The notes under the pieces are model-generated. The model worked only from the letters and a program-made list of their open reading frames with translations. It had not been told where the DNA came from and ran no database searches. Of a stretch of DNA of 64,000 nucleotides, positions 6,106 to 48,057 are shown in pieces. Each line of letters opens with the position of its first letter. The first letter of the stretch is position 1. The translations under genes and the position numbers were made by a program. The stretch lies in the NCBI GenBank assembly GCA_964574435.1, contig CAZNNO010000009.1, positions 3,828 to 67,827 on the forward strand, read 5' to 3'. Origin of the DNA: an uncultured Opitutaceae bacterium (GTDB lineage: Bacteria; Verrucomicrobiota; Verrucomicrobiia; Opitutales; Opitutaceae).

Positions 6106-6188
6106 CCCTTCAGTTCCCCTTGCCGCTGCGCCGAAGGCCGCGCCAAAATCCCTTTGCCCGGCGGCTGGCGCCGGCCCAAGATCCGCCG

Positions 6189-6599
6189 ATGAAGCCGCTA
6201 CGATGGCTGGTGAAGCAGGAGCCCGAGAGCTATTCCTGGGCGCAGTTCGAGCGCGACGGCCGAACGTCGTGGGACGGCGTCCGAAACTACCAGGCGCGAA
6301 ACAACCTCAGGGCAATGCATGCCGGCGACCGCGTTCTCTTCTATTCCAGCGGGGCTATGAAGGCGGTGGTCGGAGTCGCAAGGGTCAGCAGGGCATGCTA
6401 CCCCGATCCGACGTCGGATGAGCCGGCGTGGGTTTCGGTGGAGCTCGAGGCGCAGCGGGCGCTTGCGCGCCCCGTGACCCTCGCCGAGATCAGGGCCGAC
6501 CCGCTCCTTGCCGGGGTCCCCATCGTCCGCAACAGCCGGCTTTCGGTGATGCCGCTCGCGGCCGCTGATTTTGACCGCATCATCCGGCTCGAAGGCTGA
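6189..6599 (+). CDS. EVE (PUA-like) domain protein
   Basis: ATG at 6189 begins MKPLRWLVKQEPESYSWAQFERDGRTSWDGVRNYQARNNLRAMHAGDRVLFY, the canonical EVE-domain N-terminus. The upstream extension of ORF 5982..6599 is Arg/Pro-rich and overlaps lctP. Confidence 0.8.
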   Translation: MKPLRWLVKQEPESYSWAQFERDGRTSWDGVRNYQARNNLRAMHAGDRVLFYSSGAMKAVVGVARVSRACYPDPTSDEPAWVSVELEAQRALARPVTLAEIRADPLLAGVPIVRNSRLSVMPLAAADFDRIIRLEG

Positions 6600-6610: not shown

Positions 6611-9600
6611 TCAGTCGGCCGGACGGCGGACGAGGCGGCCCGATTCCGGCGGCGGCGCCACCTCGGGCTGCTCCTCGGCGAACGCCCGCGTGGGCGCGAG
6701 CGCCTGGCCGGATGCCGTCTGCAGCCTGCCGTCCTTCACCGCCACGTCCTCGACCCGGTAGAGGCGGCCCTCCCTCCGCAGGAACGCATCGAACTCGCCC
6801 GCGTTGAACGGGCGGCTGCCGCGCCTGCCGAAGACCACGGTCTGGTTGCCGGTCTCGTCGACCACCCGGTCGCGATCGAGTCCGCGGCTCACGGCCACGG
6901 CCGCGCCCCGGGTCGGGTAGGTGGCGATCAGCCTCGGGTTCGGGGCCGGGCTGAATCCCATGTAGCCGGGGACGTTCTCGGGCGAGATCATCTGGAGGAC
7001 CCGCAGGCCGTTCTTCCCGTCAGCGACGAGCGCGTACATGGACGCGCTCACGGAGCCGATCTGCACGGCGCGCGTGTCATTGAGCTGCCCGCCGGCGCTG
7101 AAAATCTCCCTGAGGCTCGGGGACGCCGGATTCTTGATGTCCACGATCGCGAGGCCCTCGGAGCCGTCGGCGACATAGAGGTAGGTCCGGGCCGCGTAGA
7201 GGCCCTGCGCATCCCTCAGGGGGACCGTGGCGCCCGCCAGGGGCGCGGGATTGTCCGGGTCGGCCAGGTCGAGGACCTTCACGCCGTCGTCGTCGGTGAC
7301 GAAGGCGTACAGGAACTGGACGGCCAGGCTCCGCGGGTTGCGCAGGAACCCGGCGGGCGTGCGGCCTGTTATCCGCGGCTTCGTCGGGTCGCTCACATCG
7401 ACAACCACGAGGCCCGCGGTGCAGGTCACGTAGAGTCGCCTTCCGGCGACATAGGCGTGCGTCGCCCCGTCGAGCGCGCCGCCGGGGTTGAAGCGCGTGA
7501 CGTCCGAATCCCTGAAGAAGTTGTTCGTGGGATCGCCGTCGAGGAGCGTCCCGACCATCACGTCGACCAGGCCCTCGTAGCGGTCGGTGACGTAGACGTA
7601 ACCGTAGACCAGGCTGATCGGCTGCTCCTCGTTCTCCGGCCGGTGGGTGCGAAGGGGGTCGATGCCGAGCGTGCTGGGAAGGGCCACGCTTGTCGCATAC
7701 TTCGTGCGGACCCAGAGGCGCTGGCCGAGGGGCGAGACCGGGGCCGAGACGATGCGCTCCGAGAAGCCCTTGTTGTCGACATTCGCGACGTCGAATACCT
7801 CGAATCCGCCGGGGCCGTTGGCCGTGTACAGGTACTCGCCGCGCAGCGTGAGGTCCCTGATGTCCTCGCCGTCGTGGTGCCAGCCCTCCTTGAGGACGCC
7901 CGCGTTGGCCTCGACATGCAGCCTGTAGTTGTCCGGATACGCGAGGCGCTGGAGGTGGCTGCCCAGGGGCGCCTGGGGCTCCTCGCGCTCCGTCCACGCG
8001 ACGGCGTCAAAGCCGTCGCGCCCGGAGCCGACATAGGCGTAGCGTCCGAAGAAGTTGACCGTGCCCGTCCCGAAGCCGAGCAGCTGGGTCACCCAGGCAT
8101 TGTTGTCGTTCGAGGCGGACAGGTGGCAATCCGTGCAGTTCTTCGTCGTGCCCACCGAGCTTGTCGTGTGGGGGAAATGCGGGTTGAAGGCCTGGCCTGA
8201 GTAGCCCTCCGCCGATATGGTCTGCTGCTGAGAATAGATCCATTCGCGGTTGGCGTTCTGCGATCCCACGATGACCGCGCTCGACGAGCGCAGGACGGCC
8301 AGGCGGTTCCCCTTGTAGGTGGCGTCCTTGCCGAGCATGAACACGTCGTCGCGCACGACCTGGGGGTTGTAGCTCGTGTAGTTGCGCGTGGTCGTCCCCT
8401 CGAACTTGTTGGCCTGGACCATCTTGTTTGCGCGCATCGGCAGGTGGCAGCCGAAGCAGCTCGTCGCCCATGACGTGTGGCATATCTGGCACGAGATATT
8501 GGAATTTGCGTGGGCAAGCTGCTCGGAGATGATGACGGGGTTCGCGGGCACGTCGCCCCACGTTACCCCGTCCCGCCGCAGGGTCTTCGCGTAGGCGGAC
8601 TTCGGGTTGTAATGCTCCGAGGCGGGGTTGATCGTGTCGATAGTCTGCGGGACCTCCCAGACCACGTCGGGGGTCATCATCGAGCGCTGGTAGAGCCGGC
8701 GCCCGACCCAGAAGAACCTGGGTCCCCACGGCGTGGAGCCCTTGGACAGGTCGGACGGCTCGACTTTTCCGTCCTCAAAGGTCCCGGAATTGCCCGTGGT
8801 CACCAGCGTCGGCCTCCGCTCTACGGTGCCGTGGCAGTCGATGCACTCGATTGCGGTCGCAGCGCGCGGTTCGCCGTAGAGCAGCCCGTTGCCGTGCACA
8901 TCGGTCCCGAAGTGGCAGTCGACGCACTGCATGCCGCGCGCAAGATGGACGTCCTTCAGGTGCACTGCCTTCGTGAACTTCGCGGGGTCGTCGTGGTCGA
9001 TGGGCTTGTCGTCGAGCGTGAGGAGGTTGCCCTCGCGATCCTTCTTGAATACGGCGCGGAACACCCATCCGTGGCCATGGTAGTCGGCAAACTGGGTCTG
9101 CTTCAGCTTGGGATTGAGCTCGGCTACCTTCTCCAGGAAGTCGGGATCGCCCCAGAGGCCCCTCGCCGCGGCAGCCTCGGGGTTGCGCTGCAGCGAAGCC
9201 GCCACCTCGGCCTCCGTCGGGTTCCTCTGGGAGGCCGGGTACATGAATTCGCCGTCGCTCTCCTGGTCCCACCAGATGTAGCCGAGAAAGGGGTTAACAA
9301 ACAGGTTGCCCTGGTGCATGTGGCAGGTGATGCACTGGCTCGACGGGATGCTGCGCGTGAACTGGTGGCGGATCGGGTGGGCCTTCTCGCGCTTGGAGAT
9401 CATGGGGTCGCCAGTGAAGCTGAGTCCCTGGTTGCCGTACTTGGACCACCAGCCGGAATTGGTCGGCGACCGGTCGTTCGCATAGACAACATGGCAGGCG
9501 GCGCAGCCCGACGAGCGGTAGTCGCCCGGGTGGTCGTTCGAGCCCATGAAGCCGAGGAGGGGATCGTGCAGCCGGGTCTTCTGAAGGTTGAGGAACACGG

Positions 9601-10498
9601 GGTCGATGCGGTTGAGCGTCCCAAGGCCCCTTTCCGAGAGGCGCCGCTCCGGATGACCGGGCGTCTCGAACGGGTCGGGAATCCCGATCCGCTCCTGCTT
9701 CTCGCCGCCCTCCTCGAAGATCCGCAGGATGTTCGACGGCTGGCCGAGCTCGAAGCGGGGCAGCGGCTCGAGGTAGGGAAGGATGCCGTTGAGCCGGGTC
9801 AGCTCCGGGGAGACGGGCACGGGGCTCTCCAGCCGCAGGGCCTCGCCATTGGCCCCGTACGCCTGACCGTAGCGCGGGTTCTTGAACGGAACCGCGCCGT
9901 TGTTATAGAGGGCGGCGCCCCAGAGCATCGCCCCGTGGTTCATCATGCTCTTGCCGACATGCTGGACTATCTCGCCGTGGCATAACCCGCAGGCCTTGTC
10001 CGCCACCCGCAGATCCGCCGGGTTCACGAACCGGATGAACTCCTCCGACTCGTGGTTGAGCAGGACCGAGGAGTCGGAGGGTTTTGCCGAGCTCTGCCAG
10101 AAGACCGGGTTGCGCGGCGCGACGTGGGCCTTTCGCATCGTCAGCCCGGGTGTCGGGTCGCCTCCGTGGCAGTCGACGCAGCCGAGGACCACGAAGGGCG
10201 AGGCGTGCATGTCCTCGACTCCGCTGTGGCACTGCAGGCAGCCGGCGCTCTTGCGCCGGGCCGCCTCCGGGCTCTGGTCCACGAGGGTGGCCTCCTTCGG
10301 CGCAGGCAGGGGGGCATCGGACGAGCGCGCGTCCCGCGAGACGGAGATCGGCGGACCAAAGAGCGTCGGTCCCGCCGGGGCCTGGGCTGCGCCTGGGGTC
10401 CCCGCCGGCTGCGCGAGCGAACACAGCGCCAGGCCCGCGCCCGCGACGGCCGCGATCAGGCGCTGGGCGCGTACGGGCTTCTTCGGTGGGAAAGGCAT
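6611..10498 (-). CDS. Secreted decahaem c-type cytochrome fused to a C-terminal LVIVD-repeat beta-propeller
   Basis: ATG at 10498. Sec-type signal peptide (RLIAAVAGAGLALCSLAQP). Ten CXXCH motifs in the first ~800 aa (CLQCH, CVDCH, CGLCH, CAACH, CITCH, CVDCH, CIDCH, CQICH, CFGCH, CTDCH). The C-terminal ~450 aa carries repeated GFEVFDVANVDN, GLVVVDVSDPTKP, GVKVLDLADPDNP, GLAIVDIKNPASP and GLRVLQMISPEN units typical of LVIVD repeats. Confidence 0.85.
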   Translation of the reverse strand: MPFPPKKPVRAQRLIAAVAGAGLALCSLAQPAGTPGAAQAPAGPTLFGPPISVSRDARSSDAPLPAPKEATLVDQSPEAARRKSAGCLQCHSGVEDMHASPFVVLGCVDCHGGDPTPGLTMRKAHVAPRNPVFWQSSAKPSDSSVLLNHESEEFIRFVNPADLRVADKACGLCHGEIVQHVGKSMMNHGAMLWGAALYNNGAVPFKNPRYGQAYGANGEALRLESPVPVSPELTRLNGILPYLEPLPRFELGQPSNILRIFEEGGEKQERIGIPDPFETPGHPERRLSERGLGTLNRIDPVFLNLQKTRLHDPLLGFMGSNDHPGDYRSSGCAACHVVYANDRSPTNSGWWSKYGNQGLSFTGDPMISKREKAHPIRHQFTRSIPSSQCITCHMHQGNLFVNPFLGYIWWDQESDGEFMYPASQRNPTEAEVAASLQRNPEAAAARGLWGDPDFLEKVAELNPKLKQTQFADYHGHGWVFRAVFKKDREGNLLTLDDKPIDHDDPAKFTKAVHLKDVHLARGMQCVDCHFGTDVHGNGLLYGEPRAATAIECIDCHGTVERRPTLVTTGNSGTFEDGKVEPSDLSKGSTPWGPRFFWVGRRLYQRSMMTPDVVWEVPQTIDTINPASEHYNPKSAYAKTLRRDGVTWGDVPANPVIISEQLAHANSNISCQICHTSWATSCFGCHLPMRANKMVQANKFEGTTTRNYTSYNPQVVRDDVFMLGKDATYKGNRLAVLRSSSAVIVGSQNANREWIYSQQQTISAEGYSGQAFNPHFPHTTSSVGTTKNCTDCHLSASNDNNAWVTQLLGFGTGTVNFFGRYAYVGSGRDGFDAVAWTEREEPQAPLGSHLQRLAYPDNYRLHVEANAGVLKEGWHHDGEDIRDLTLRGEYLYTANGPGGFEVFDVANVDNKGFSERIVSAPVSPLGQRLWVRTKYATSVALPSTLGIDPLRTHRPENEEQPISLVYGYVYVTDRYEGLVDVMVGTLLDGDPTNNFFRDSDVTRFNPGGALDGATHAYVAGRRLYVTCTAGLVVVDVSDPTKPRITGRTPAGFLRNPRSLAVQFLYAFVTDDDGVKVLDLADPDNPAPLAGATVPLRDAQGLYAARTYLYVADGSEGLAIVDIKNPASPSLREIFSAGGQLNDTRAVQIGSVSASMYALVADGKNGLRVLQMISPENVPGYMGFSPAPNPRLIATYPTRGAAVAVSRGLDRDRVVDETGNQTVVFGRRGSRPFNAGEFDAFLRREGRLYRVEDVAVKDGRLQTASGQALAPTRAFAEEQPEVAPPPESGRLVRRPAD

Positions 10499-10516
10499 GG
10501 CGATGGTGGCCCGGGT

Positions 10517-12841
10517 TCAGTAGGTGAACGTTCCGGCGAGAATTGCGCTGTACAAAAATTGGTCAACCTTGCCGCTCGAGGCGGGCGTGAATCCGGGCAC
10601 GGCCGGCACCGTGTTCGTGTAGATGTCCCGGTAGCCGCTTCCGGGAAGCAGGACACCGCAGCCGGCGGAGATAATGACGTTGCTAATGAGGAAGGGGCGC
10701 CACTGGAACCCGAGGCTCAGGTCGAAGCCGATGCTGCGGCCCGCCTGGTTTGTCATGAGGACCGTCTTCAGGGTGTCGGTCGAGTCAAACTGGAGGTAGT
10801 TTGCGTTCGCGAAGGCCCGAAGCTTCGGGGTAATGTCCGCCTCGGCGCCCAGGCCGTACAGCAGCAGGCCCGGATTCACGAAATTGGACTGTCCCTCGAA
10901 GGAGCCTCCCGCGCGAAGGTCGGGAAGCAGGCTGAAGCGCTGCTTGAGCGGGACCGACGTCCCGCCGAGGTTGAAGCTTTGGCGCACCCAGTAGCTGAAC
11001 GGCCCCCCGGTGAAGTTCGTGTTGTCCTCGATCGAGTCAAAGCCCGTTGCGCGCCCGCCCTGAGGGTCCCTGTCGCCCGACGCGTAGAAGAACGAGGCCT
11101 TGTAGCGGATCCAGTCCCTGTCGAAGCTCAGCTCGATCGCCGCCATCTCCGCCAAGATGTCCTCCGGGCGCCCCGCAAGGCCGTTGAACTCGTCGCGGCC
11201 TGTGACGAGATAGAGGGCGTCATCCACGTTCAGCTTGCCGATATGACCGTCCCCGGTCAGCCCGATGTAGTAGCTGTCGACGCGGTGGGCTCGAACCGTG
11301 CCGATCGGCGCGGGGCGAACAAGGAATCCGTTCGTGTCGTACTTGGTGCCCGGCTGGTCGAAGCTGCCCAGGACGCTGAGCTCCGTGGTGAACCCGGGGA
11401 ACAGCGAGTCCTGGCGGTAGACGTTCGCGACCGCCACGAGCTGGCCGCGCCTCTGGAAAGTGTTGAGGTCCGAGTCCGTGTCCTTCTCGCGCAGGTCGAA
11501 CAGGGCGAGGTTGTATTGCCACTTGTTGTTGCCGTAGTTGCCGAAGAAGCGGGCGCCGAGGTTCGTGTCGTTGAATATGAAGCCGCGGAAGTCGCTGTTG
11601 AACGTCTGGTTTCCGACGTCGACGGCGCAGAAGTCGTAGTTGGGGGACAGGTCGGCGAGGTGCACCTCGAGGAACGCCTCCTGGAGCGAAACGTAGGTCC
11701 TGTCCCGGGATGTCGCCTGGGTGCCGGCCAGGCTTCCCGGGGCGGGAGTGAGCCCCCCGAGGAGCGAGCCCACGTCGCCCGGGTTTGTGACCCCACCGTC
11801 GTCCGTTCCCGTCCCGTTCGAGGTCAGCGACCCGGTCGGGCTCGGGGAAACCTGGGCCGTCTCGCGGAAATCCACGTGGTTGAAGTCGAAGACGGGCTTG
11901 ATATGCACCAGCCAGTCGACCGGCTTGAACACCGTGTCCCCCTTGAAGAGGTCGAACTCGAGCGCGAGGTCCGACGTGAAGAGCCGCGAGCCGCTGTTCC
12001 CGTAGAAATTGAAGCTTCCCGCGGACGCCGCGCTCGGGCCGCTGGGAACCGGCAGCGTCCGGTCCTCGCCGACAAAGTCGGCCGTCGCGGTGAGCCTGAG
12101 GAACACGTCCTGGCCGCTTATCGGCAGGTCTCCCTTGAGCATGCTCTGGCGGTAATAGTGCCAGAACTCGGGATCGGAATGAAAATACGGCATCTCCTCG
12201 GTGTCGCCGGAGGTGTAGCGGCGCCAGGGCTCGAAGCCTTCCCGCCAGCGGTCGGGCACGGGCCGCGCCCCGGGGAACGCGCCGGGGGTGTCCGCAGGCG
12301 GGTAGGAGCCCGGGGCGCTCCAGTGGCCCGGGATGAACTCGTCCTCGCGCACGCCCGCCCTCGGGAGCCTGAGCGGCGCGGGGAGGGGCTCCTGGCCGTA
12401 GCCGGACGGCGCGGCGGCCTCGGGGGCCTGCGCGATCTGGACCCGCTCGAGGGGCCCGCGGGCCACGCTGACCTGCGCGGTCTCCTGCTTGGCCGGCTCC
12501 GCGGCCTGGAACGTCGAGAAAAGGGAAGGCTCCGGTGCGGGCGCCACTGCCTGCCAGGCTCCGGGGTCCGGGTCGAACTGGAGCGCGGGCTGGGCGCCAT
12601 TGCCCTCTGGGATACGCCTGAGCACGAGGACAGGCGGGGGAAGCGCCACGGGCGGCGCCGGCAGGGGCGCGCCCGGATCGACGTGGACATCGCTCGGCGC
12701 CGCGGGAGGCGTTCCCCTGGACTCCCGTTGCATGGGGCGCGGCTTGTCGGCGGGCAGGACGTCGGGCGCGACCGCGGGGCCGCTCCGGCAAGCCGCCAGG
12801 GCGACAAGGACGAAGGCCGACGTCAGCAGCGCTCGCCTCAT
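10517..12841 (-). CDS. Large outer-membrane beta-barrel lipoprotein (porin-like component)
   Basis: The internal ATG at 12841 gives MRRALLTSAFVLVALAACRSG (lipobox LAAC) and overlaps the upstream stop by 4 nt (ATGA). A ~200-aa Pro/Ala-rich linker is followed by ~550 aa with alternating hydrophobic/polar, Gly/Asp/Asn/Tyr/Phe-rich barrel-type composition, ending ...LAGTFTY with a C-terminal aromatic residue. The longer ORF to 13072 is rejected. Confidence 0.7.
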   Translation of the reverse strand: MRRALLTSAFVLVALAACRSGPAVAPDVLPADKPRPMQRESRGTPPAAPSDVHVDPGAPLPAPPVALPPPVLVLRRIPEGNGAQPALQFDPDPGAWQAVAPAPEPSLFSTFQAAEPAKQETAQVSVARGPLERVQIAQAPEAAAPSGYGQEPLPAPLRLPRAGVREDEFIPGHWSAPGSYPPADTPGAFPGARPVPDRWREGFEPWRRYTSGDTEEMPYFHSDPEFWHYYRQSMLKGDLPISGQDVFLRLTATADFVGEDRTLPVPSGPSAASAGSFNFYGNSGSRLFTSDLALEFDLFKGDTVFKPVDWLVHIKPVFDFNHVDFRETAQVSPSPTGSLTSNGTGTDDGGVTNPGDVGSLLGGLTPAPGSLAGTQATSRDRTYVSLQEAFLEVHLADLSPNYDFCAVDVGNQTFNSDFRGFIFNDTNLGARFFGNYGNNKWQYNLALFDLREKDTDSDLNTFQRRGQLVAVANVYRQDSLFPGFTTELSVLGSFDQPGTKYDTNGFLVRPAPIGTVRAHRVDSYYIGLTGDGHIGKLNVDDALYLVTGRDEFNGLAGRPEDILAEMAAIELSFDRDWIRYKASFFYASGDRDPQGGRATGFDSIEDNTNFTGGPFSYWVRQSFNLGGTSVPLKQRFSLLPDLRAGGSFEGQSNFVNPGLLLYGLGAEADITPKLRAFANANYLQFDSTDTLKTVLMTNQAGRSIGFDLSLGFQWRPFLISNVIISAGCGVLLPGSGYRDIYTNTVPAVPGFTPASSGKVDQFLYSAILAGTFTY

Positions 12842-14541
12842 GGCAGCTTCGCCGTCAACGACCCCCTGGACAGCATCGCCGGCATGTTGTGGTAGACGTG
12901 GCAGGTCGTGCAGCTGTGCGCGACGCCGCCCTTCGGGCTGTGGCATCGGACGCAGCTCTGCTGCGTCGGAAGGATGACGTCGGAGGTGCGCTCGCTTGCG
13001 GCCGCCGCGTGGCACTCGGTGCAGGCCATGGCCGAGTGGGCCGAATGGCGGAACGAAGCGCCGAGCAGCCACCGGTCGGGCGTCTCCGGGGGCGTCACCT
13101 GGGGAACCGCGCTCCCGCGCCAGGCGACGTCGTGGCAGAGCGCGCAGCCCGCGAATTTCGCCCGCTCCTCTCCTCCACCGGCGGCCGGCATGGTCTTGCC
13201 GTTGCTGAGAAAGACCTCCCGCTCAAGTTCCTCGCCGCTGTGCGCGCGCTGGCGCAGCGACTCGAGCTTGCGCCGCACAAAGGCCTCGACCTCCCTTTGG
13301 GAGGAGATCCCGAGCTTGCGAACGGCGAAGTCGGCGTACTGGACTGGGAGGCTTCGCAGGAACGCCCGCACGAACGCCGCGTTGCCGTGCGGAAGGTTCA
13401 TCCCGGGCGTCCGTTCGTCGAAGTCGAGTGCGTGGCAGGCGCGGCATGAGCCCTCGAAGGAGATCCGGGACATGTAGGCCCCGGAGGCGTCGGGCCTGTG
13501 GCAGTAGGCGCAGTCGAGCGGACGGCCGTCCACCAGCGGGATGTCGGTGCCGACCAGGTGGAGACGGTGGTTGAAGCGGAGCGTGTTGACGTCCTGGGAC
13601 TTGTCGCGCAGCACCCGGAACTCGGGGTGATCGGCGGCAAACCCCGTAATCACCTCGGTGTATCCGTCGACAGGCCTGCGCACCGAATGAACGACGAGGC
13701 CGGGAGGGGCCGGACGCTCGAACAGGATCGCCGGCAGGGGCCGGCTCAGCTGGCGCGACGCCTGCATCTGCCTTGGGTCGCCGTGGCACGCGATGCAGTT
13801 CTGCCCGGATACCGCCAGCATCGGGCCGGAGCCCTGGTGCTCCCGGTGGCAGACGGGGCACGAGGTTGCGCGCGCCACGTCGGCCTCGTGGAAGCCCCGC
13901 GCCGCATGGCAGGCCAGGCAAGAACGGTCCATGCGCGAGAAATCCTTCGGGTGATCGCCCGTCAGGTCCGCGAAGCGAAGCGAGGTCCGGGAGGCCGCGA
14001 GGGCATCCAGGGCTAGGTCGCTGAACGTCGAATTCGCGACCGCATGGCAGAGGACGCAGCCCTGCCCGCCCTTCGCGCCCGGCACGCCCGCGGCCAGGTG
14101 CGCGAATTCGGGGCCCGAATGCTGCCGGGAGAGCGGCCGGGGATTTATGAAAATGTCCCGCGCCGAACCCGACAGGCCGACCAGGAGCGCCCCAAGCGCC
14201 GCCGCGGTCACCGCAAGGGCGACCTGGCCGCGGCGCGCCCGCAGGCTGCGCACCGGCTTGCATCGGGGGACCGCGCGGCAGCACGCGCCGTCGGGCAGCG
14301 GCCCGGCCTCGCACGGGCCGCCCCAGTCTTCGGGCCGCGTGCAAACCCACGTGCCCTTTGTTTCGCCCGGCTTGAGCGCGAGACGCGGGGCGCACTCCGT
14401 CGTTGCGCGGCATTTGCCGGTCGGACTCGGGCCGATGCGGCACGGGCACCCGTCCTTCGCGTTGCCGCACACCCAGTCCTTGTTCGGGCGCTCGTAGCGG
14501 CCGCTATTGAAGTCCGGCGTGGGCGCTCTTCCCTCGCTCAT
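12838..14541 (-). CDS. Signal-anchored decahaem c-type cytochrome with N-terminal cytoplasmic Cys-rich domain
   Basis: ATG at 14541 overlaps the upstream stop (ATGA). Residues ~20-95 contain 10 Cys (WVCGNAKDGCPC..GKC..TEC..WVC..GPC..ACC..PRC). These are followed by RSLRARRGQ and one TM helix (VALAVTAAALGALLVGL), then ten CXXCH motifs (CVLCH, CLACH, CPVCH, CIACH, CAYCH, CRACH, CALCH, CTECH, CVRCH, CTTCH). Confidence 0.85.
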   Translation of the reverse strand: MSEGRAPTPDFNSGRYERPNKDWVCGNAKDGCPCRIGPSPTGKCRATTECAPRLALKPGETKGTWVCTRPEDWGGPCEAGPLPDGACCRAVPRCKPVRSLRARRGQVALAVTAAALGALLVGLSGSARDIFINPRPLSRQHSGPEFAHLAAGVPGAKGGQGCVLCHAVANSTFSDLALDALAASRTSLRFADLTGDHPKDFSRMDRSCLACHAARGFHEADVARATSCPVCHREHQGSGPMLAVSGQNCIACHGDPRQMQASRQLSRPLPAILFERPAPPGLVVHSVRRPVDGYTEVITGFAADHPEFRVLRDKSQDVNTLRFNHRLHLVGTDIPLVDGRPLDCAYCHRPDASGAYMSRISFEGSCRACHALDFDERTPGMNLPHGNAAFVRAFLRSLPVQYADFAVRKLGISSQREVEAFVRRKLESLRQRAHSGEELEREVFLSNGKTMPAAGGGEERAKFAGCALCHDVAWRGSAVPQVTPPETPDRWLLGASFRHSAHSAMACTECHAAAASERTSDVILPTQQSCVRCHSPKGGVAHSCTTCHVYHNMPAMLSRGSLTAKLP

Positions 14542-15365
14542 CGCGCCCCCCCTGAAAAAGCATAGACCAACACGACATGCACGCCCGTGAACGTCAGCAT
14601 CGCATAGGTCAGCGGTATGTGGACAAACAGCCAGCCCTTCAGGACGAGCTGCATCGAGCGGTGGAGGTCGAGGGCGTCCTTCTCGCGCACCAGAGCCGCG
14701 AGCTCGACCGCCGCCGACTTCTCAAAGTGGCTCAGGTACTTCTTGATCTCCCCGATGTCCGCAAGGAGCCTGTTCAGGGTGTGGCGGGAGCCAAGCAGAT
14801 GCGGCCCGAAGTTCGCCGGGCCGGCGAAGAAGCCGCTCAGCCTCGCGGCGTAGAAGTCGGCAAGGGTCGTCGCGCCCGCCGTGGGGATGCCGGCGACCAC
14901 AAGGGCCTCGGCGCGCTCGCGCAGCGACCGGCGGATGGACGGGATTCGCTCGTAGGGGACCTCGCCCCCGGCGCTCGTCAGCCTGCGCGGCAGGACGCTC
15001 GAAAGCCACCAGCCGGCGATGCCGCTCAGCGTTACCCCGACGAAGAGCGCGGCCAGCGTTGCCTCGAACGGCCCCCGGGGAAGGCGCCGGCCCGCGTGCA
15101 TGAAAAATACGATGGCCGTCAGCATCCCAATCCAGGAATGAAGCCGCATCCAGGTCCGAGAGCTCACTAGCGGCAGGAAGGCGATCTTCTTGCGCAGGTT
15201 GTAGGCGGTCAGGAAAAGCGTCAGGGCAAACAGAACCCACCCCGTGAGGTAGGCCAGGCGGGGGTTAACCGTCTCGGCCCTGCTGAACGCCCAGATGGCC
15301 GCTGCCGCGGCCCCGGTCGCCGCGGCCGGATAACCGGCCCGCCTTAGGATCCGGCCCGCCTTCAT
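14538..15365 (-). CDS. Polytopic membrane protein with four intramembrane His (candidate dihaem b-type cytochrome)
   Basis: ATG at 15365 (MKAGRIL) overlaps the upstream stop by 4 nt. About 5 predicted TM helices, with His in helices at WMRLHSWIG, VFFMHAG, LFVHIPL and FTGVHVVL, plus a ~110-aa soluble loop. Haem b binding is an inference. Confidence 0.65.
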   Translation of the reverse strand: MKAGRILRRAGYPAAATGAAAAAIWAFSRAETVNPRLAYLTGWVLFALTLFLTAYNLRKKIAFLPLVSSRTWMRLHSWIGMLTAIVFFMHAGRRLPRGPFEATLAALFVGVTLSGIAGWWLSSVLPRRLTSAGGEVPYERIPSIRRSLRERAEALVVAGIPTAGATTLADFYAARLSGFFAGPANFGPHLLGSRHTLNRLLADIGEIKKYLSHFEKSAAVELAALVREKDALDLHRSMQLVLKGWLFVHIPLTYAMLTFTGVHVVLVYAFSGGAR

Positions 15366-17086
15366 CTTTGAATCCAGCTCACGAGCTCGTCGAGCGTGTT
15401 GAGGTTGATCCTTTTCAGCGCGTCGTGAGGGCACGCGCGCTCGCAGGCCGGCCCCCCGTACTGGTCATTGCAGAGGTCGCACTTGGTCGCCTTGTGGATC
15501 GGGTTGGAATCGCTCGCGAGGAGGATGGCCCCCTTTCGGTCGCGCTGCTCGACCATGCGGATGGCCCCGTACGGGCAGTTGTTGGCACAGGCCGAGCAGC
15601 CGATGCAGCTCGAAGGGTTGATGACGACGTTTCCCTCAAAGGTCTCGCGGTGGATGGCGCCCGTCGGGCACCCGATCATGCAGATCGGGTCCGTGCAGTG
15701 CATGCAGGCCTGGGCCACCATGAGGTTGTTGTGGATGGGGCCGTGCCTCAGGAAGCGCGGGTTGTTGTCATGAGTGGCGGCGCACGCCCGGACGCAGTCG
15801 TCGCACCGGGTGCAGTGGTCCAGGTCGATGACCATGGTCTTCGTCCCGTTGAAGAACCTGTTCTGGGTGACGAATTCCATGACCTCCGCCGCCACGCGCG
15901 CGTCGGGCGACTCCGGTGAGGAGGCGGGCCTGAGACGCGCGTCGGCGCGGCGGTCGCCCTCGATCGGGGGCGGAAGCATGGCGTCGGGCATCGCCGGCAG
16001 CACGATCTCCTCTATGATGGAGGCCGGTATCACGAGCACATGCGTGTACCCGATGACGCGAAGGGTGTGCTGGAGGGCGACGTGGTCGTTCGGCCGGCGC
16101 CAGTTGTGAGCGATCTCGTCGAAGCCGTACATGCGTCCCGAGCCGAGGTAGCTGAGGGTGCGGTGCCCGCTTCCATAGCGCTGCGTGACGCGCGCGAACC
16201 CGGCCCGGATCATCACGACGCTGTTGGGGTAGTCGCCCTCGACCGCGATCGTCGGCTCCTGCGCGGCCGAGGCCCCGGACTGCACGAGCTGCTTGTATTC
16301 GCCGGACCAGTCGTATTCCCCGTAAGTCTCGAACTGCGTCGCGTCCATCAGGCGCCTCTTGGCGTCCGCGCCGAGGAACCTCATGAACGGCAGCTCCTCC
16401 AGGTAGGTCGAGAGGGCCCTGTCCCTGTAGATCCCGTCGATGAACTTCCTGACTTGGGGGTCGTAGCGCATGAGGTCGCGCAGGCCCTGCCAGCGGATCT
16501 CGAGCATCTCGGCGCCACCGGCCTTTGCCAGGATTGTCGCGGTCCGAGGGAGTCGAGAAAGCGCGGCTATCTCGCCGAAGACGTCGCCGACGCTGATGGT
16601 CGCTGTGCGCTGGCCGCTCAGGACGCGCGGGATGTCCTGGAGGATGATGCCGGGCTCGGCGTCGCCCGACCGCGCCGCAGGGGTGTCGGCTCCCGCGCCC
16701 CCCTTCGCCACCTCGTCCTCGGCGGGATTCGTCCAGAGCTGGGCAAGCGCCCGGAACAGTCCCCGTCGGGCCGGTTCGCTTCGTCCCACGAGCCTCGGCG
16801 GCAGACCCGGGCTTAGGACGACCTCTGCGGAGCCCGACATGACCATGAAAGCCGAGTTCCCATAGTCGCCCTCGCGCACGATGATCTCGCCGGGCTTGAA
16901 CTGGCGCAGGCGCGCGTCGTTCCTAAGGATGTCGTGGAGCTGTGCCGATCTCGGGAAGCTCTCCGGGTTCATTTCCTTGAACGGGGGGATCCTCAGGAGC
17001 CGGCCCACGTCCATCTCGGACATGTCCTTGCTGAACGGGACATCCCACCGCCTCGGACGATTGAGACCGGACGTGGACTGGCTCAT
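15362..17086 (-). CDS. Two cyclic-nucleotide-binding domains fused to a four-cluster [4Fe-4S] ferredoxin (DmsB/NrfC-like), cytoplasmic
   Basis: ATG at 17086 (MSQSTSGLN) shares 1 nt with the upstream stop (TGATG). cNMP-type segments are FKPGEIIVREGDYGNSAFMVMSG...GDVFGEIAAL and a second AVEGDYPNSVVMIRAGFARV...GRMYGFDEI. The C-terminus has CTRCDDCVRAC, CMHCTDPICMIGCP, CIGCSACANNCP and CDLCND..ACERACP. No signal peptide. The upstream extension to 17431 is rejected. Confidence 0.85.
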   Translation of the reverse strand: MSQSTSGLNRPRRWDVPFSKDMSEMDVGRLLRIPPFKEMNPESFPRSAQLHDILRNDARLRQFKPGEIIVREGDYGNSAFMVMSGSAEVVLSPGLPPRLVGRSEPARRGLFRALAQLWTNPAEDEVAKGGAGADTPAARSGDAEPGIILQDIPRVLSGQRTATISVGDVFGEIAALSRLPRTATILAKAGGAEMLEIRWQGLRDLMRYDPQVRKFIDGIYRDRALSTYLEELPFMRFLGADAKRRLMDATQFETYGEYDWSGEYKQLVQSGASAAQEPTIAVEGDYPNSVVMIRAGFARVTQRYGSGHRTLSYLGSGRMYGFDEIAHNWRRPNDHVALQHTLRVIGYTHVLVIPASIIEEIVLPAMPDAMLPPPIEGDRRADARLRPASSPESPDARVAAEVMEFVTQNRFFNGTKTMVIDLDHCTRCDDCVRACAATHDNNPRFLRHGPIHNNLMVAQACMHCTDPICMIGCPTGAIHRETFEGNVVINPSSCIGCSACANNCPYGAIRMVEQRDRKGAILLASDSNPIHKATKCDLCNDQYGGPACERACPHDALKRINLNTLDELVSWIQR

Positions 17087-18381
17087 CAGGCGTCGATTAC
17101 CAGCGCGGTGGCGGGCCGGCAGATGCACGCGAGGCAGGAACCCTGCTCCACGTCGGCCCCGTGAGCGCCTATGTATTCCACCGAACCGGACTTGATCGCG
17201 ACAAGGCAGGAGCCGCAGTTGCCGGCGCGACACCCGGCGTCGATCCGGATCTGTGCCTCCTCGGCCAGCTCGAGGAGGGAACGCCCGCCGCCCTGCCAGG
17301 TGACCTTGCGGCCAGATTTCGCGAACGTGACCTCCAGGCCGCCAAACGGGGCGAACGTGACGGCGACCTTCGCCTCGGGCTTTGCCGCGCGCTTTACCGA
17401 GGCGGGGCCGAAGGCCTCGAAATGCACCCACTCGTCAGGCACTCCCCATTTCCTGAGGTCCTCGGTTATGCTCTCCATGAATGCGCCGGGGCCGCAGAGG
17501 AAATACTCGAAGTTGTTGGAGGGAAGCACCTGCTTGAAGAGGTCCACCGTGACCCGCCCCTGATGCTGGTAATCGCGGCCCTTTACGTCCGACTCTAGCG
17601 GCTTGGAATAGCAGATGTGAACCCGCACGTTCCTGTGATCGCTGCCAAGAGCGCTCATGTAGCCCTTGAACATGTGATCCTTGTTGTTCCGGGCCCCGTG
17701 GAAGAACCAGATCTCGCGGGACGACTTGGTCTCCAGCAGCGCGTTGGCCATGGCCACCATGGGCGTCACGCCCACTCCGCCCGAGATGAGGACGACCGGC
17801 CGCTCCTGCTCCGGGTCGAGGTGGAAGTGCCCGTTCGGCGCCTTCACGTCGAGGATGTCGCCAACCTTGACCTGGTCGCAGAAGAAGGACGAACCCACGC
17901 CTGGCGGGTGGATTCCCCCCTCTGCCGGAGGGCAGCGCTTTATGGTAACGCGGTAGTGCGTCGCCCGGGCGCAGTCCGAGAGCGAGTAGCATCGCACCAG
18001 CGGTTTTCCGAGTCCCGGGATGTTCAGCAGGAACGTGAGGTACTGGCCGGGCTTGAACGGGGGCAGGGGTTTGCCGTCGTGGGGCTTGAGGTAGAACGAG
18101 TAGGTGTCTGCGCATTCCATCACCTTCTGGGTCACCGAGAACTTGCGGATTCCGTTCCAGGCCGACTTGGCCTCCTCAACGTTCTTTATCTGCTGGCGGG
18201 CCTTCTCGATCTCGAGCTCCAGCCGCCGGCACTGCAACGCCGCCCGCCTTCTCTCCGCAAGCAGCCCGAGGATTCCGGTCGCTGCCAGGACACACACCTC
18301 CGTCGCGAGACCGAGGACGATCAGGACACCTGCGGTCGCCTCGGGGTGATCGGCGACAAATTTTAAGATCCTCACCAGCAT
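17086..18381 (-). CDS. Membrane-anchored FNR-family flavoprotein oxidoreductase with C-terminal plant-type [2Fe-2S] ferredoxin domain
   Basis: ATG at 18381. N-terminal TM helix (GVLIVLGLATEVCVLAATGILGLL) and a coiled stretch. FAD-binding RCYSLSD (RxYS), NAD(P)-binding VVLISGGVGVTPMVAM, then CRAGNCGSC...CLAC 2Fe-2S ligands. Confidence 0.85.
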   Translation of the reverse strand: MLVRILKFVADHPEATAGVLIVLGLATEVCVLAATGILGLLAERRRAALQCRRLELEIEKARQQIKNVEEAKSAWNGIRKFSVTQKVMECADTYSFYLKPHDGKPLPPFKPGQYLTFLLNIPGLGKPLVRCYSLSDCARATHYRVTIKRCPPAEGGIHPPGVGSSFFCDQVKVGDILDVKAPNGHFHLDPEQERPVVLISGGVGVTPMVAMANALLETKSSREIWFFHGARNNKDHMFKGYMSALGSDHRNVRVHICYSKPLESDVKGRDYQHQGRVTVDLFKQVLPSNNFEYFLCGPGAFMESITEDLRKWGVPDEWVHFEAFGPASVKRAAKPEAKVAVTFAPFGGLEVTFAKSGRKVTWQGGGRSLLELAEEAQIRIDAGCRAGNCGSCLVAIKSGSVEYIGAHGADVEQGSCLACICRPATALVIDA

Positions 18382-18497
18382 TCAATAAATGTGGATTATG
18401 CGCGCAAGGGCCAGAACGGCGACATTTGACGCTGGAATTGAAGCCCCAGACAACCCATTGGTAGTGGAGACTCTCCTACCGGGCCAAACCAAATATC
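18382..18497. promoter_or_regulatory. Divergent promoter region between the redox operon and the multihaem cytochrome gene
   Basis: 116-bp intergenic spacer flanked by two divergently oriented ATG starts (18381 minus, 18498 plus). It is relatively AT-rich compared with the flanks. No specific operator was identified. Confidence 0.35.
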
Positions 18498-19640
18498 ATG
18501 CGACCGGCAACAAAAGTGGGCATCGTGGCGATCCTGGGCCTGGCCGCCCTGGCTCCCCTTGCGCCGGCGGCCGCCCTTGAGGGGCTCGGGGCAGGCACGT
18601 GCTCCACAAGCGGCTGCCATGGGGGCGCGGGCGAAATGAGCAACCAGTATGTCGTTTGGGTGCAACGAGACGTGCATTCCCGGTCCTATGCCACGCTCAA
18701 CACGGCGCGCTCCGCCCGAATGGCCGAGGCGCTGTCCGTGGCCAATCCGGCAACAAGTCCGCGCTGCATCGTGTGCCATGCGCCGCTGGCGAGCATCCCG
18801 TCCATGGGCCCAGGCGCGGGATTCGACCCGGCCGAGGGCGTTTCGTGCGTGAGCTGCCACGACCTGCCGGCCGGCTGGCTTCGCAGTCACACCCGCAAGG
18901 ACTGGACGCACGCCGACCGCGTCGCGGCCGGCATGCGCGACTTGAACGACCTTTATTGCCGGGCGAACACCTGCGTCGCCTGCCACCAGAATGTCGATCC
19001 CGAGCTTGTGAGCGTCGGACGCCACCCCGCTCTCATCTTCGAGCTCGACGGTCAGACCCAGGACGAGCCGAAGCATTGGCGCGAGCGCTCGGCCGACATT
19101 GGAGCCCAGGCCTGGTTTGTCGGGCAGGCGGTTGCCCTGAGGGAGGTCAGCTGGGCCCTCCTCAACGGCCGGGCGGACACCGCGCGCTCAATTCCCGTAT
19201 GGCGGGGACTGGTCTGGCTGCTGGCCCGCAGCGGAGTGGACGCCGGGTTGGCGCCGTTGGCCCTGTCGGCGCCCTCGCAGTCGGCGCTGGCGTCCGCAGT
19301 CGAGACTGCCGACCTGCTGGCGAAGAGGGCGGCGCAGACCTGGGAGCCGCAGTCCGCTGGCACCGTGCTAAGGCGCCTCGCAGCGACCCAGGATGACTTC
19401 CTCGCCACGGACATTCCGCAGCTTGAGCAGGCATGCCGCGCCGAGCGGCTCGTCCTGGCCCTCGACCGGCTCCTGGCCGCAGTGCCGGCCGAAGGCCGCC
19501 CGCCCGAAGCCTCCAAGCGGCTGGACCGGCTCTTCAGGCTCGCGCAGTCGCAGCCGGATTTCGTGCCGGCCGACTTTGCGCACGAGCTCGCGGCCTTTTC
19601 AGGGGCGCTCGGCGGGCTCAGTGGCTCGACGACGCGCTGA
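18498..19640 (+). CDS. Secreted multihaem c-type cytochrome (3 CXXCH plus one CX4CH)
   Basis: ATG at 18498. Signal peptide (VGIVAILGLAALAPLAPAAA). Motifs CSTSGCH (CX4CH), CIVCH, CVSCH and CVACH in the first ~170 aa, followed by a ~200-aa Ala/Leu-rich non-haem C-terminal region. Confidence 0.8.
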   Translation: MRPATKVGIVAILGLAALAPLAPAAALEGLGAGTCSTSGCHGGAGEMSNQYVVWVQRDVHSRSYATLNTARSARMAEALSVANPATSPRCIVCHAPLASIPSMGPGAGFDPAEGVSCVSCHDLPAGWLRSHTRKDWTHADRVAAGMRDLNDLYCRANTCVACHQNVDPELVSVGRHPALIFELDGQTQDEPKHWRERSADIGAQAWFVGQAVALREVSWALLNGRADTARSIPVWRGLVWLLARSGVDAGLAPLALSAPSQSALASAVETADLLAKRAAQTWEPQSAGTVLRRLAATQDDFLATDIPQLEQACRAERLVLALDRLLAAVPAEGRPPEASKRLDRLFRLAQSQPDFVPADFAHELAAFSGALGGLSGSTTR

Positions 19641-21883: not shown

Positions 21884-22993
21884 ATGAACACTCCACTCCT
21901 CTTCGTCGTTGGAGCCACCCATCGCACCGCCTCTTTCGTGTTTCGGGAAAAGCTTGCCTTAGGAGGTGAGCAGGAGGCCCAATTCTCAAAGGAACTTGCT
22001 TCTATGCAGCATCTTATGGAATTTGCTGTGCTCAATACGTGCAACAGGGTCGAAATCTATGGGGTTGCGGGCCGGGATGACCTGCCAAGCCGGGTCAGCG
22101 CGGCCCTTTGCGCCCGTCATGGCGTGGAGAGCGCAGCTTTTGCCGAGTTCGGCTTCGTCTCCATGGGCCTTGAGGCTGTCCGGCACCTTCTGGAAACGGC
22201 CTCGGGACTTGATTCTCAGATGCTGGGCGAGACGGAGATCCTCGGCCAGGTGAAGAAGGCGTATATGAACGCCCAGGCGCGCGGATCCGCGGGTCCCGTT
22301 TTGAATCGGCTGTTTCAAAAAGCCTTTCAGGCGGCCAAGCACGTTCGCACCCAGACGGCGATATCGGTAGGGCAGGTCAGTGTCGCCAATCTCGCGGTGG
22401 ACCTTGCCGCAGGCATCTTCGGGCGCCTCGAGAACACCCGTGTGCTCATCCTCGGGGCCGGGGCGATGGGCGAGAAAAGCGGCAAAGCCTTTGCAAGCCG
22501 CGGAGCCAGAACCTTTGCCGTTTCCAGCCGCAGGCTCGAGAGCGCCGGCGAGCTCGCCGAAAAACTCGGCGCCTCGGTGCTCCCGTTCGAGGAGCGCGAA
22601 CAGGCGCTGGCCGATTGGGACGTCGTCGTCTGCTCCGCGGCCGCGTCCGGGGCAGTCATTTCCGCTGGAGCCGTGCGGGGAGCCGTCGAGCGCCGGGGCG
22701 CCCGGCCGATCCTCTTCGTCGACCTCGCGATGCCCAGGGACGTGGACGCAGCCGCCGTCGAGGCGGGCAATGTCTTCCTGTACAATCTGGACGACCTGGC
22801 GCAGATTGCTGCCAAGAACCGCCTTGCCCGCGCGGCGGAGGCTGAGCGGGCCCTGCAGATCCTCGCCCCGCGCGCCGAATCGCTCTGGCTGCAGGTGCGG
22901 GCCCAGTTCAGCGGCAGGGGCTCCGCGGGCGGCCGCCCCTTGGAGCCCGCCGCCCCGCAGGCGGCGCCCGCGCTGGCATGGGCCGCCCAGTGA
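21884..22993 (+). CDS. hemA: Glutamyl-tRNA reductase
   Basis: ATG at 21884. VVGATHRTASFVFREKLAL, the LNTCNRVEIYGV active-site Cys motif, GETEILGQVKKAY and a Rossmann VLILGAGAMGE. At 369 aa it is short for the family. Confidence 0.9.
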   Translation: MNTPLLFVVGATHRTASFVFREKLALGGEQEAQFSKELASMQHLMEFAVLNTCNRVEIYGVAGRDDLPSRVSAALCARHGVESAAFAEFGFVSMGLEAVRHLLETASGLDSQMLGETEILGQVKKAYMNAQARGSAGPVLNRLFQKAFQAAKHVRTQTAISVGQVSVANLAVDLAAGIFGRLENTRVLILGAGAMGEKSGKAFASRGARTFAVSSRRLESAGELAEKLGASVLPFEEREQALADWDVVVCSAAASGAVISAGAVRGAVERRGARPILFVDLAMPRDVDAAAVEAGNVFLYNLDDLAQIAAKNRLARAAEAERALQILAPRAESLWLQVRAQFSGRGSAGGRPLEPAAPQAAPALAWAAQ

Positions 22994-23016
22994 CGCGAGG
23001 CGACCTGACCCGCCCC

Positions 23017-24420: not shown

Positions 24421-24538
24421 ACCCCATGCGCGGCAATTTCCCAATCCGGTGCCGCCTCACGGAGGCCAGGGCAAGAAATGCGCAGACACCGGCAATCCGC
24501 GCGGAGCGAGCGCCGCAAGCCGTGCGGTAGGATCATTT

Positions 24539-24733: not shown

Positions 24734-24751
24734 AGCCCCACACTTCCGGAT

Positions 24752-27079: not shown

Positions 27080-27088
27080 TCCCCTCCC

Positions 27089-27860: not shown

Positions 27861-27863
27861 AGG

Positions 27864-29276: not shown

Positions 29277-29289
29277 ACCCGCGACTGCG

Positions 29290-29451: not shown

Positions 29452-29453
29452 AC

Positions 29454-48048: not shown

Positions 48049-48057
48049 GGGACGGCT

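Follow-up and report, generated by a model that had tools for sequence, protein, structure and literature searches.

The pathways by which Gram-negative bacteria are known to transfer electrons out of the cell begin at the quinone pool (CymA, ImcH, CbcL, CbcBA). Barrels of the MtrB_PioB family have ~26 strands and are wide enough to enclose a decahaem cytochrome. The Verrucomicrobiota are dominant in soil, peat and freshwater, and their physiology is poorly understood. A novel porin-multihaem-cytochrome complex was proposed in this phylum by He et al. (2017, mSphere; PMC5615132; see also PMC6344600), who reported the gene cluster in Trout Bog metagenome-assembled genomes (MAGs), Opitutus terrae, IMCC26134 and Candidatus Udaeobacter, with enrichment in humic-bog genomes, and hypothesised electron transfer to humic substances; the inner-membrane step was drawn as 'ET in IM', and ferredoxin, NADP and cyclic nucleotides were not mentioned. 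Later papers merely repeat the 2017 proposal. Here we describe a cluster of six genes, g1 to g6, in a 64-kb stretch of DNA (~67% G+C; hereafter the window) from an uncultured Opitutaceae bacterium of soil or peat (GenBank assembly GCA_964574435.1, contig CAZNNO010000009.1). Together with two adjoining genes, which encode a c554-like cytochrome and a GlcG/HbpS-like protein, the cluster may specify a two-module electron-export system that spans the cell envelope and is typical of Verrucomicrobiota, a reading to which we give almost an even chance of being right.

One genome per species was scanned, which yielded at least 597 stretches encoding a relative of g5, and 80 of those loci (22 kb each, cited below by their L numbers) were compared with the proteins of the window by tblastn. 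The g5 search recovered IMCC26134 (L026, probably Lacunisphaera limnophila, with the whole eight-gene set), a Candidatus Udaeobacter MAG (L042) and Opitutae MAGs, and the cluster of He et al. is very probably the same as the g5-g6 type of cluster analysed here. The inner part of the system, NAD(P)H-fed and probably gated by a cyclic nucleotide monophosphate (cNMP), appears to be undescribed: the literature searched held no description of the inner feeder module, the cNMP link, the Cys-rich domain of g4 or a NuoEF-type replacement, and the inner module was likewise not described in the literature on LVIVD cytochromes, on cNMP domains combined with 4Fe-4S and multihaem proteins, or on extracellular electron transfer in Opitutaceae. 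The initial annotation of this DNA, made from the letters without database searches, knew of no characterised system of this composition; that statement apparently holds for the inner module, but the outer part had already been proposed in 2017.

Genes were identified by gene finding based on G+C content at third codon positions (GC3) and from a listing of open reading frames (ORFs). All six genes of the cluster lie on the minus strand, and the tight packing reported in the initial annotation was borne out by the coordinates: g1 and g2 overlap by 1 nt (position 17086), g2/g3, g3/g4 and g4/g5 overlap by 4 nt each (ATGA), and g5 and g6 are separated by an 18-nt gap. The boundaries and start codons of g1 to g6 are identical to those of public NCBI/JGI gene calls on a 74.5-kb contig. 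The overlaps point to a tight, translationally coupled operon, which supports the electron-export reading. Every domain assignment made at the outset was verified by profile searches (Pfam, NCBIfam) and by motifs.

The product of g1 (18381-17086; 431 aa) is predicted to be a membrane-anchored, NAD(P)H-oxidising flavoprotein, in which an N-terminal transmembrane helix is followed by an FNR-type module for flavin adenine dinucleotide (FAD) and NAD(P)H and then by a C-terminal plant-type 2Fe-2S domain. Pfam searches returned NAD_binding_1 (2e-19), Fer2 (5.5e-12) and FAD_binding_6 (2e-7), as well as NAD_binding_6 above its cut-off, and the best NCBIfam match was the reductase module of the flavohaemoprotein Hmp (1e-80). 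The motifs RCYSLS, GGVGVTP, CGPG and CxxxxCxxC...C were kept in 19 homologues. The protein has the make-up of an FNR-type NAD(P)H:acceptor reductase with a C-terminal 2Fe-2S domain, to which the N-terminal membrane anchor, conserved among homologues, is an addition.

The second protein, g2 (17086-15362; 574 aa), is best described as a predicted cytoplasmic Fe-S 'wire' with a sensor, because two PKA/PKG-type cNMP-binding domains (Pfam cNMP_binding, 70 bits) precede a HycB/HydN/PsrB-like domain. The first cNMP domain keeps its phosphate-binding cassette, FGEIAALSRLPRTAT, while the second is degenerate; the cassette and all 16 Cys of the four 4Fe-4S motifs were conserved in the 20 homologues examined. 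As far as sequence can tell, the intact cassette (FGE...R[ST]A) qualifies g2 as a cNMP sensor, and a cyclic nucleotide probably gates electron flow through this site. The closest PDB matches were HycB3 (1.7e-17), HycB and PsrB for the Fe-S part and the cNMP domains of PKG and PKA, and the NCBIfam matches to HydN and AegA lay under their equivalog cut-offs. The four clusters are those of a HydN/HycB/NrfC-type protein, from which g2 is set apart by the cNMP fusion and by having no Tat signal. We ruled out g2 as a Tat-exported, periplasmic NrfC-type subunit, since it has no twin-arginine signal or hydrophobic region; its cNMP domains and its fusion to the inward-facing N-terminus of g3 also rule out a periplasmic location. 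That fusion occurs naturally in P0360 (843 aa; L081), which is followed by a g4-like cytochrome.

Two arrangements outside the full cluster bear on g2. At L081 (10001-14820; JGI metagenome 3300038831) the g2-g3 fusion P0360 is followed by a 656-aa multihaem cytochrome, and g1, g5 and g6 were not found within 10 kb of the fusion. At L082 (1-12927; GCA_030428785.1, JAUIEF010000011.1), from a high-G+C bacterium, and in the same arrangement at L083, a co-directional string encodes a class-II cNMP phosphodiesterase-like protein, an FHA-GAF-cyclase, two c554-like proteins, a 487-aa protein and g2-, g3- and g4-like proteins, with no g1, g5 or g6 in the string. This string suggests a cyclic-nucleotide-controlled transmembrane electron conduit that exists as a self-contained unit.

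The membrane protein g3 (15365-14538; 275 aa) was predicted from family-averaged hydropathy and the positive-inside rule to have five transmembrane helices with the N-terminus inside, and it carries a conserved, K/R-rich cytoplasmic domain of ~120 aa. Four His were invariant in the family alignment, H76 and H90 on the second helix and H249 and H263 on the fourth, so that each pair reads Hx13H; they were retained at 24-37% identity in the Chthoniobacterales branch, including the distant homologue at L046. In the predicted topology H76 and H249 lie at the cytoplasmic ends of their helices and H90 and H263 at the periplasmic ends, a geometry that is, on prediction, that of two stacked bis-His haems b. 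The protein fell under every Pfam threshold: the DUF4405 (PF14358) match reached 21.9 against 26.7 bits and was likewise sub-threshold in 15 of 26 family members, and the Ferric_reduct match of the family (7 of 26 members) was well under threshold (E 0.027, 15 vs 28 bits). These scores point to g3 as a remote relative of DUF4405 and Ferric_reduct and not a member of either. Clustered at 50% identity, the g3 family has 2,140 representatives, and no functional name was attached to any of the 120 members listed; a PDB search with the g3 profile returned no sequence relative, and none of the 150 best representatives was a g1-g3 fusion.

Adjoining g3 is the decahaem cytochrome g4 (14541-12838; 567 aa), with ten CxxCH motifs, a transmembrane helix at residues 107-125 and a periplasmic domain of ~440 aa; ten CxxCH were present in the g4 of all 26 homologues examined, and the spacing of ~44 aa per haem looks wire-like. 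The initial annotation had called g4 a signal-anchored decahaem cytochrome, and it is indeed anchored and decahaem, but it is more than that: N-terminal to the helix lies a cytoplasmic domain of ~95 aa with eight conserved Cys in two 4-Cys repeats (~W-x-C-x8-C-x9-C-x5-C and W-x-C-x9-C-x9-C-x6-C). This domain (residues 1-100) had no Pfam or PDB match and could bind Zn or Fe-S. It was found in 17/17 homologues from loci with the g1-g2 block and was absent from NuoEF-type and Chthoniobacterales loci; the g4-like protein of L082 has a single 4-Cys repeat only. Strict tracking of g1 by the Cys-rich domain was considered and ruled out, as L082 combines one repeat with g2 only and L078 has a g2-like protein with no Cys-rich domain in g4. 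A DmsE/MtrA-family match in NCBIfam was weak and restricted to the first haems (32.5 bits vs a cut-off of 192), and a PDB sequence search with g4 returned nothing significant.

Two further genes are best assigned to the same system. The c554-like gene (18498-19640, plus strand; 380 aa) is divergent from g1 and encodes a periplasmic protein with a signal peptide, three CxxCH and one CxxxxCH motif and a helical C-terminal half, matched by Pfam Cytochrome_C554 at E 9e-9. In nearly every locus with enough flank it adjoins g1, or the g3/g4-like genes where g1 is absent. The 116-bp divergent intergenic region between it and g1 (18382-18497) is, to judge from the layout alone, the presumed promoter region of both. 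A sigma-70 consensus scan found nothing in that region, and across 6-19 kb the sigma-70 promoters and intrinsic terminators detected were at chance level, and such scans are uninformative for this phylum. Rfam and tRNA scans of the window gave no match, and therefore no RNA element is involved. The second gene, for the secreted GlcG/HbpS-like protein (19618-21129, minus strand; 503 aa, DUF336 twice), matched Pfam HbpS-like at E 5.6e-25 in two stretches, and its product begins with an N-terminal signal-like sequence; NCBIfam gave the protein no name, and the counterpart at L046 has 892 aa. Haem or tetrapyrrole handling and redox sensing are possibilities for its role.

The barrel-like C-terminus attributed to g5 (12841-10517; 774 aa) by the initial annotation was confirmed by structure prediction. 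Between a LAAC lipobox and the barrel, g5 has ~210 Pro-rich residues that extend into the periplasm and contain short conserved motifs; in an AlphaFold2 model built with 120 sequences, residues ~24-230 were disordered and Pro-rich, and residues ~240-774 formed ~18 long strands with a block-mean predicted local distance difference test score (pLDDT) mostly of ~80-95. The best Foldseek match was AlgE 3rbh (E 1e-16, TM-score on target 0.67, 12% identity), followed by Occ/OprD and OmpF porins, and no MtrB structure was among the top 50 matches. No MtrB_PioB match was found in Pfam; the sole barrel-family match was a weak one to Alginate_exp (PF13372; 17.8 vs a threshold of 25.2), although some homologues do carry PF13372. 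The model thus gives g5 as a confidently predicted outer-membrane beta-barrel of the 18-strand AlgE class, not of the MtrB class; g5 is predicted to share the fold class of AlgE without being a functional member, and no alginate genes lie nearby in the window. Conservation peaks in a long loop (about residues 590-658), a hint of a constriction or of a specific interface. Homologues of g5 numbered more than 2,700, all Verrucomicrobiota-type; those with a source name come from Opitutaceae, Opitutae, Pedosphaera and other Verrucomicrobia, one of them the isolate Rariglobus hedericola. The lipobox is kept mainly in close relatives. Six loci (L054, L069, L072, L074, L075 and L077) encode g5-like barrels of 41-44% identity with no g6 homologue downstream, which suggests a paralogous lineage with a different partner.

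The largest protein, g6 (10498-6611; 1,295 aa), is exported and combines a haem domain of ~750 aa, whose ten CxxCH motifs are all conserved among homologues, with a C-terminal LVIVD beta-propeller (Pfam LVIVD 3.9e-21). Its haem spacing is ~75 aa per haem, comparable to that of surface reductases such as MtrC, and LVIVD propellers carry a cell-surface domain annotation. Foldseek matches of the propeller were generic (YncE, BtuG, LRP6), Pfam gave no MtrC/MtrF-domain match, and the NCBIfam matches to ExtM (E 1.4e-18, 66.6 bits vs a cut-off of 800) and NetB were weak. Homologues number more than 7,500 at 90% clustering, all of them unnamed.

Nearly all of the 80 loci compared were labelled Verrucomicrobiota; a few were labelled Klebsiella, Proteobacteria, Blastochloridaceae or Planctomycetota, and these we took as mislabelled or misbinned MAGs. 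Of the loci with enough flank, 57 of 63 have the gene for g6 immediately downstream of g5, at 54-84% identity, and 37 of 61 have a GlcG/HbpS-like gene, the most frequent companion of the pair, immediately upstream. Where the g1-g2-g3-g4 block occurs within 10 kb of a g5 relative it is always colinear (20/20 loci), but the exact six-gene co-directional order is confined to 6/80 loci, all of them Opitutae relatives. The order proposed initially is therefore real in the window but is not one invariant operon: two separable modules recur across genomes, an inner-membrane module of the c554-like gene and g1 to g4 and an outer module of the GlcG/HbpS-like gene, g5 and g6, the latter being by far the more widespread. 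The block was found in four arrangements relative to g5-g6, namely co-directional and abutting (the six Opitutae), with the GlcG-like gene between, inverted, and downstream, which together span Opitutae, Pedosphaerae/Limisphaerales and Verrucomicrobiae. Since the linkage survives rearrangement, we argue for a functional connection between modules that are nevertheless separable.

The entry to the inner module is itself exchangeable. In Chthoniobacterales loci g1 and g2 are absent, and a fused NuoE-NuoF-like protein, with a 2Fe-2S cluster, a flavin mononucleotide (FMN)/NADH site and a 4Fe-4S cluster, is encoded beside the c554/g3/g4 core. These proteins have 708-776 aa; the gene follows the c554-like gene at L046 (19306-21432, plus strand) and L056 (~20073, plus strand), lies directly downstream of the g4-like gene and on the same strand at L071 (1749-4079, minus strand), and was also seen at L061 (~20989, minus strand). 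At L044 an FAD-dependent oxidoreductase gene follows the c554-like gene instead. One NAD(P)H-oxidising module has here taken the place of another that is not its orthologue. As sets of g2, g3 and g4 also exist without g1, NAD(P)H is only one possible donor. Four independent observations support a physical and functional coupling of the membrane part to cytoplasmic redox proteins: the g2-g3 fusion, the NuoEF replacement, the co-variation of the g4 Cys domain, and the cyclase and phosphodiesterase genes at L082.

From these features a path across the envelope can be proposed. In it, g1 would oxidise NAD(P)H on its FAD and hand the electrons on, by way of its 2Fe-2S cluster, to g2, which, with its four 4Fe-4S clusters, would dock on the cytoplasmic face of g3 and perhaps also on the Cys-rich domain of g4. 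The two putative haems b of g3, with H76/H249 on the cytoplasmic side and H90/H263 on the periplasmic side, would pass electrons to the ten haems c of g4, and the c554-like tetrahaem protein would act as a soluble shuttle between g4 and g6, the cyclic-nucleotide site of g2 gating the flow. At or under the outer membrane g6 would be the terminal reductase, working with the AlgE-class barrel g5 on an acceptor that may be external or imported. Foremost among the possible acceptors are humic quinones and Fe(III), because two related clusters come from peat and bog. The predicted topology is consistent with this order of partners: g1, g2 and the N-terminal domain of g4 are cytoplasmic, and g3 has its N-terminus inside, with its two His pairs at corresponding depths. 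Electrons exported from NAD(P)H would run down the membrane potential and leave the proton inside, as in NOX; with no energy conserved, the path is likelier to serve as a regulated redox valve, or as a reductase that is assimilatory or extracellular, than as a proton-pumping chain, and such a dissipative path would give a rationale for the cNMP sensor. The split NOX/ferric-reductase logic suggested initially, from NAD(P)H through flavin and Fe-S to haem b across the membrane, gained support from the Hx13H pairs of g3, the weak DUF4405 and Ferric_reduct matches, the g2-g3 fusion and the NuoEF replacement, and the inner end is indeed unlike CymA/NapC, with no CymA/NapC, NrfD or HybB family found among the six proteins by profile searches. 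A bypass of the quinone pool is plausible. In its most specific form, as a quinone-independent, cNMP-gated 'electron valve' that leads from NAD(P)H, or from NADH through a NuoEF-like protein, over Fe-S clusters, a dihaem-b membrane protein of a new family and ~24 haems c to g6, the proposal is tentative, and we would sooner expect some part of it to be wrong.

Several observations weigh against the export system as drawn. The g1-g4 block is present within 10 kb in only 20 of the 80 loci, so that the modules are linked but not obligatorily; the GlcG-g5-g6 trio often stands alone among housekeeping genes, for example at L019; and the g2-g3-g4 set occurs without g1, g5 and g6 at L081 and L082. 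No significant PDB relative of g6 was found with the single sequence or with a profile, and in an AlphaFold2 model of its residues 70-1260 the propeller reached a pLDDT of ~90 but the haem domain failed (20-40). A lipobox-like motif was present in only 12 of 111 g6 homologues, the other 99 not being lipoproteins, and many have an anchor-like N-terminus, so g6 may be periplasmic; an 18-strand barrel may be too narrow to sheath a decahaem cytochrome, in which case electrons would not cross through g5. The system may thus not be a true porin-cytochrome conduit. If the inner module works as proposed, g6 could instead be a periplasmic multihaem/propeller enzyme whose diffusible substrate or product passes through the g5 channel, the substrate being a small anionic oxidant, a fulvic-type quinone or a chelated metal and the GlcG/HbpS-like protein an accessory haem- or ligand-binding factor; we consider this unlikely on balance, yet deserving of attention. 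The fold and strand count of g5 fit AlgE/OccD-type substrate channels and not MtrB, its most conserved part is a long loop of the kind typical of a constriction or selectivity element, and the 54-84% identity of g6 across classes of the phylum looks more like that of an enzyme than of a typical surface cytochrome. The GlcG-g5-g6 trio is, moreover, autonomous in many genomes, including those of lineages such as Candidatus Udaeobacter (L042), probably aerobic soil bacteria. He et al. also called the porin-adjacent cytochrome periplasmic (PMC5615132). Profile, PDB and Foldseek searches, however, found no catalytic-site signature and no known enzyme relative for g6, whose LVIVD annotation and haem density resemble those of surface proteins, and strand number alone does not exclude a conduit, because 18 strands are also predicted for Geobacter ExtB, which nevertheless belongs to ExtABCD, a conduit with genetic support (PMC6148476).

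The inner end of the path admits a different reading, in which g3 and g4 are an ordinary quinol:cytochrome c oxidoreductase that draws on menaquinol, like CbcBA, CbcL or CymA, so that the pool is not bypassed and g1 and g2 are a cNMP-responsive regulator or an NAD(P)H:quinone-type input at g3. Two Hx13H pairs are also the pattern of the quinone-reactive cytochromes b of bc1 and b6f, and by analogy with the cytochrome b of bc1 g3 could react with quinones as well; profile searches in Pfam and NCBIfam, on the other hand, detected no quinone-binding family or motif in g3. Loci L044, L051, L060 and L068 encode c554/g3/g4-like proteins with no g1/g2 or NuoEF-like gene in the available stretch, and the sets at L081 and L082 have no NAD(P)H module, although L044, L051 and L060 end within ~1.5 kb beyond the c554-like gene and a partner may be out of view. 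The genome has a quinone-dependent aerobic chain, with a cbb3 oxidase encoded within the window itself, but mere regulators would hardly account for the large conserved cytoplasmic domain of g3, for the natural joining of g2 to g3 or for NAD(P)H modules that recur and can be exchanged, and we regard the quinol-oxidising reading as improbable. Flow in the inward direction, from an extracellular or periplasmic donor such as Fe(II) or reduced humics through g6, c554, g4, g3 and g2 to g1 with reduction of NAD(P)+, strikes us as very improbable. All the cofactors are reversible in principle, FNR-type enzymes and NuoEF modules can reduce NAD(P)+, and the related PioAB and MtoAB operate in the oxidative direction; such flow would nevertheless run against the membrane potential and uphill to -320 mV with no energy-coupling subunit present, g1 is most like NAD(P)H-oxidising reductase modules (Hmp, oxygenase reductases), and no carbon-fixation context was seen in the window.

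Around the cluster the window holds genes of more familiar kinds. Upstream, at 22846-34470 on the plus strand, a HemN-like radical-SAM gene is followed by a cbb3 cluster with a fused ccoN-ccoO (781 aa), ccoP, ccoG, a gene for a DsbD_2-type protein and two P-type ATPase genes (CcoI-like); because this oxidase cluster is present, the organism is not a strict anaerobe. Downstream of g6 lie a convergent EVE-domain gene (5982-6599, plus strand), a lactate permease gene and an old-yellow-enzyme homologue. The long EVE-domain ORF runs into the 5' end of that for the lactate permease (4399-6105, minus strand), and the start codon of one or the other is probably further in. Membership of the lactate permease in the operon was ruled out, since the convergent EVE-domain gene lies between lctP and g6; among the loci compared, lctP was conserved at this position only in the closest relative. 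Elsewhere in the window are GH94, GH63-like and glycogen-debranching genes, and the context fits a microaerobic or facultative sugar-degrading member of the Opitutaceae. The region at ~48000-56000 has a G+C content of 0.55-0.59, as against ~0.67 elsewhere, and encodes a sulfotransferase-like protein, a PhyH-family dioxygenase and several ORFs without a family, with a VPDSG-CTERM protein and a 1,029-aa Ig-domain protein nearby; it may be an acquired surface-modification island.

If the proposed path is true, its design would differ from that of the quinone-linked pathways: electrons would leave NAD(P)H and pass the membrane over NOX-like haems b under the control of a cyclic nucleotide, in a redox valve and not an energy-conserving chain, by which largely fermentative sugar degraders could dump reducing equivalents on humics or Fe(III) on demand. 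The g5/g6 family is nearly confined to records labelled Verrucomicrobiota, and, if humics or iron are reduced, the system would bear on how carbon is split among respiration, fermentation and methanogenesis in peat and bog, a question raised by He et al. (PMC5615132). Whatever the acceptor, the g3 family, the 8-Cys cytoplasmic domain of g4 and the cNMP-Fe-S protein g2 are concrete and testable.

Compared with described conduits, the contiguous genes g4, g5 and g6 make up a generic porin-cytochrome gene cluster in the sense of PMC6148476 and PMC5615132, and MtrCAB, PioAB, MtoAB, OmaB-OmbB-OmcB and ExtABCD likewise encode a multihaem cytochrome, a barrel and a second large multihaem protein together. 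The cytochrome-barrel-cytochrome parallel with MtrCAB, PioAB/MtoAB and the Geobacter Pcc conduits drawn by the initial annotation therefore stands in so far as the barrel is contiguous with the cytochromes, but it is not new (PMC5615132), and it does not extend to the class of the barrel. Unlike MtrCAB and PioAB, which have an MtrB_PioB-family barrel and a soluble periplasmic cytochrome of the MtrA/DmsE kind, this cluster encodes a barrel of ~18 strands in the AlgE class and a g4 that is anchored in the inner membrane and, in most genomes, encoded apart from the barrel. Unlike the surface lipoproteins MtrC and OmcB, g6 is not a lipoprotein in most homologues, and it carries a beta-propeller. 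To judge by the profile and structure searches, the proteins are not members of the MtrB or MtrC families and g4 matches the MtrA/DmsE family weakly at most, and in contrast to the known conduits the cluster has no quinol dehydrogenase of the CymA, ImcH or CbcL type.

The inner-membrane end has its nearest counterparts in other kinds of system. With NOX, Fre-MsrQ, DUF4405, PepSY-like proteins and FezC it shares a logic in which cytoplasmic NAD(P)H would feed a flavin, two stacked bis-His haems b and a non-cytoplasmic acceptor; the His-pair geometry of NOX and ferric reductases recurs in g3, and g1 exceeds the cut-off of the ferric-reductase family NAD_binding_6. The FAD/NAD(P)H-transmembrane fusion of NOX is replaced here by parts split over g1, g2 and g3, with a predicted five-cluster relay (one 2Fe-2S and four 4Fe-4S) and cNMP domains between flavin and haem b, and the haems b would reduce a decahaem c in place of O2, an Fe(III) chelate, MsrP or a flavinylated protein. 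One DUF4405 protein, studied in purified form, binds haem b; it was proposed to be a transmembrane electron carrier related to MsrQ, PepSY and FezC, and is described with six helices and four central His (PMC11334425), as compared with the five predicted helices and large cytoplasmic domain of g3.

Complexes that join the same three elements are also known. Hmc, Tmc and DsrMKJOP of sulfate reducers each build one transmembrane path from a multihaem cytochrome c in the periplasm, a dihaem cytochrome b in the membrane and an Fe-S protein in the cytoplasm, and so connect periplasmic cytochromes to redox chemistry inside the cell; their cytochromes b are of the NarI type, their Fe-S proteins of the HdrD/CCG type, and electrons probably move inwards through them. 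Set against this description, g2 is HycB/HydN-like with cNMP domains, its partner is an NAD(P)H flavoprotein, and flow is most likely outwards. CbcBA, CbcL and Cbc3-6/ExtMNOPQS of Geobacter likewise pair an inner-membrane cytochrome b with a multihaem cytochrome c and are dedicated to extracellular electron transfer; they are, however, menaquinol oxidases of known cytochrome b families, whereas g3 falls in none of these, and the system described here adds a feeder module.

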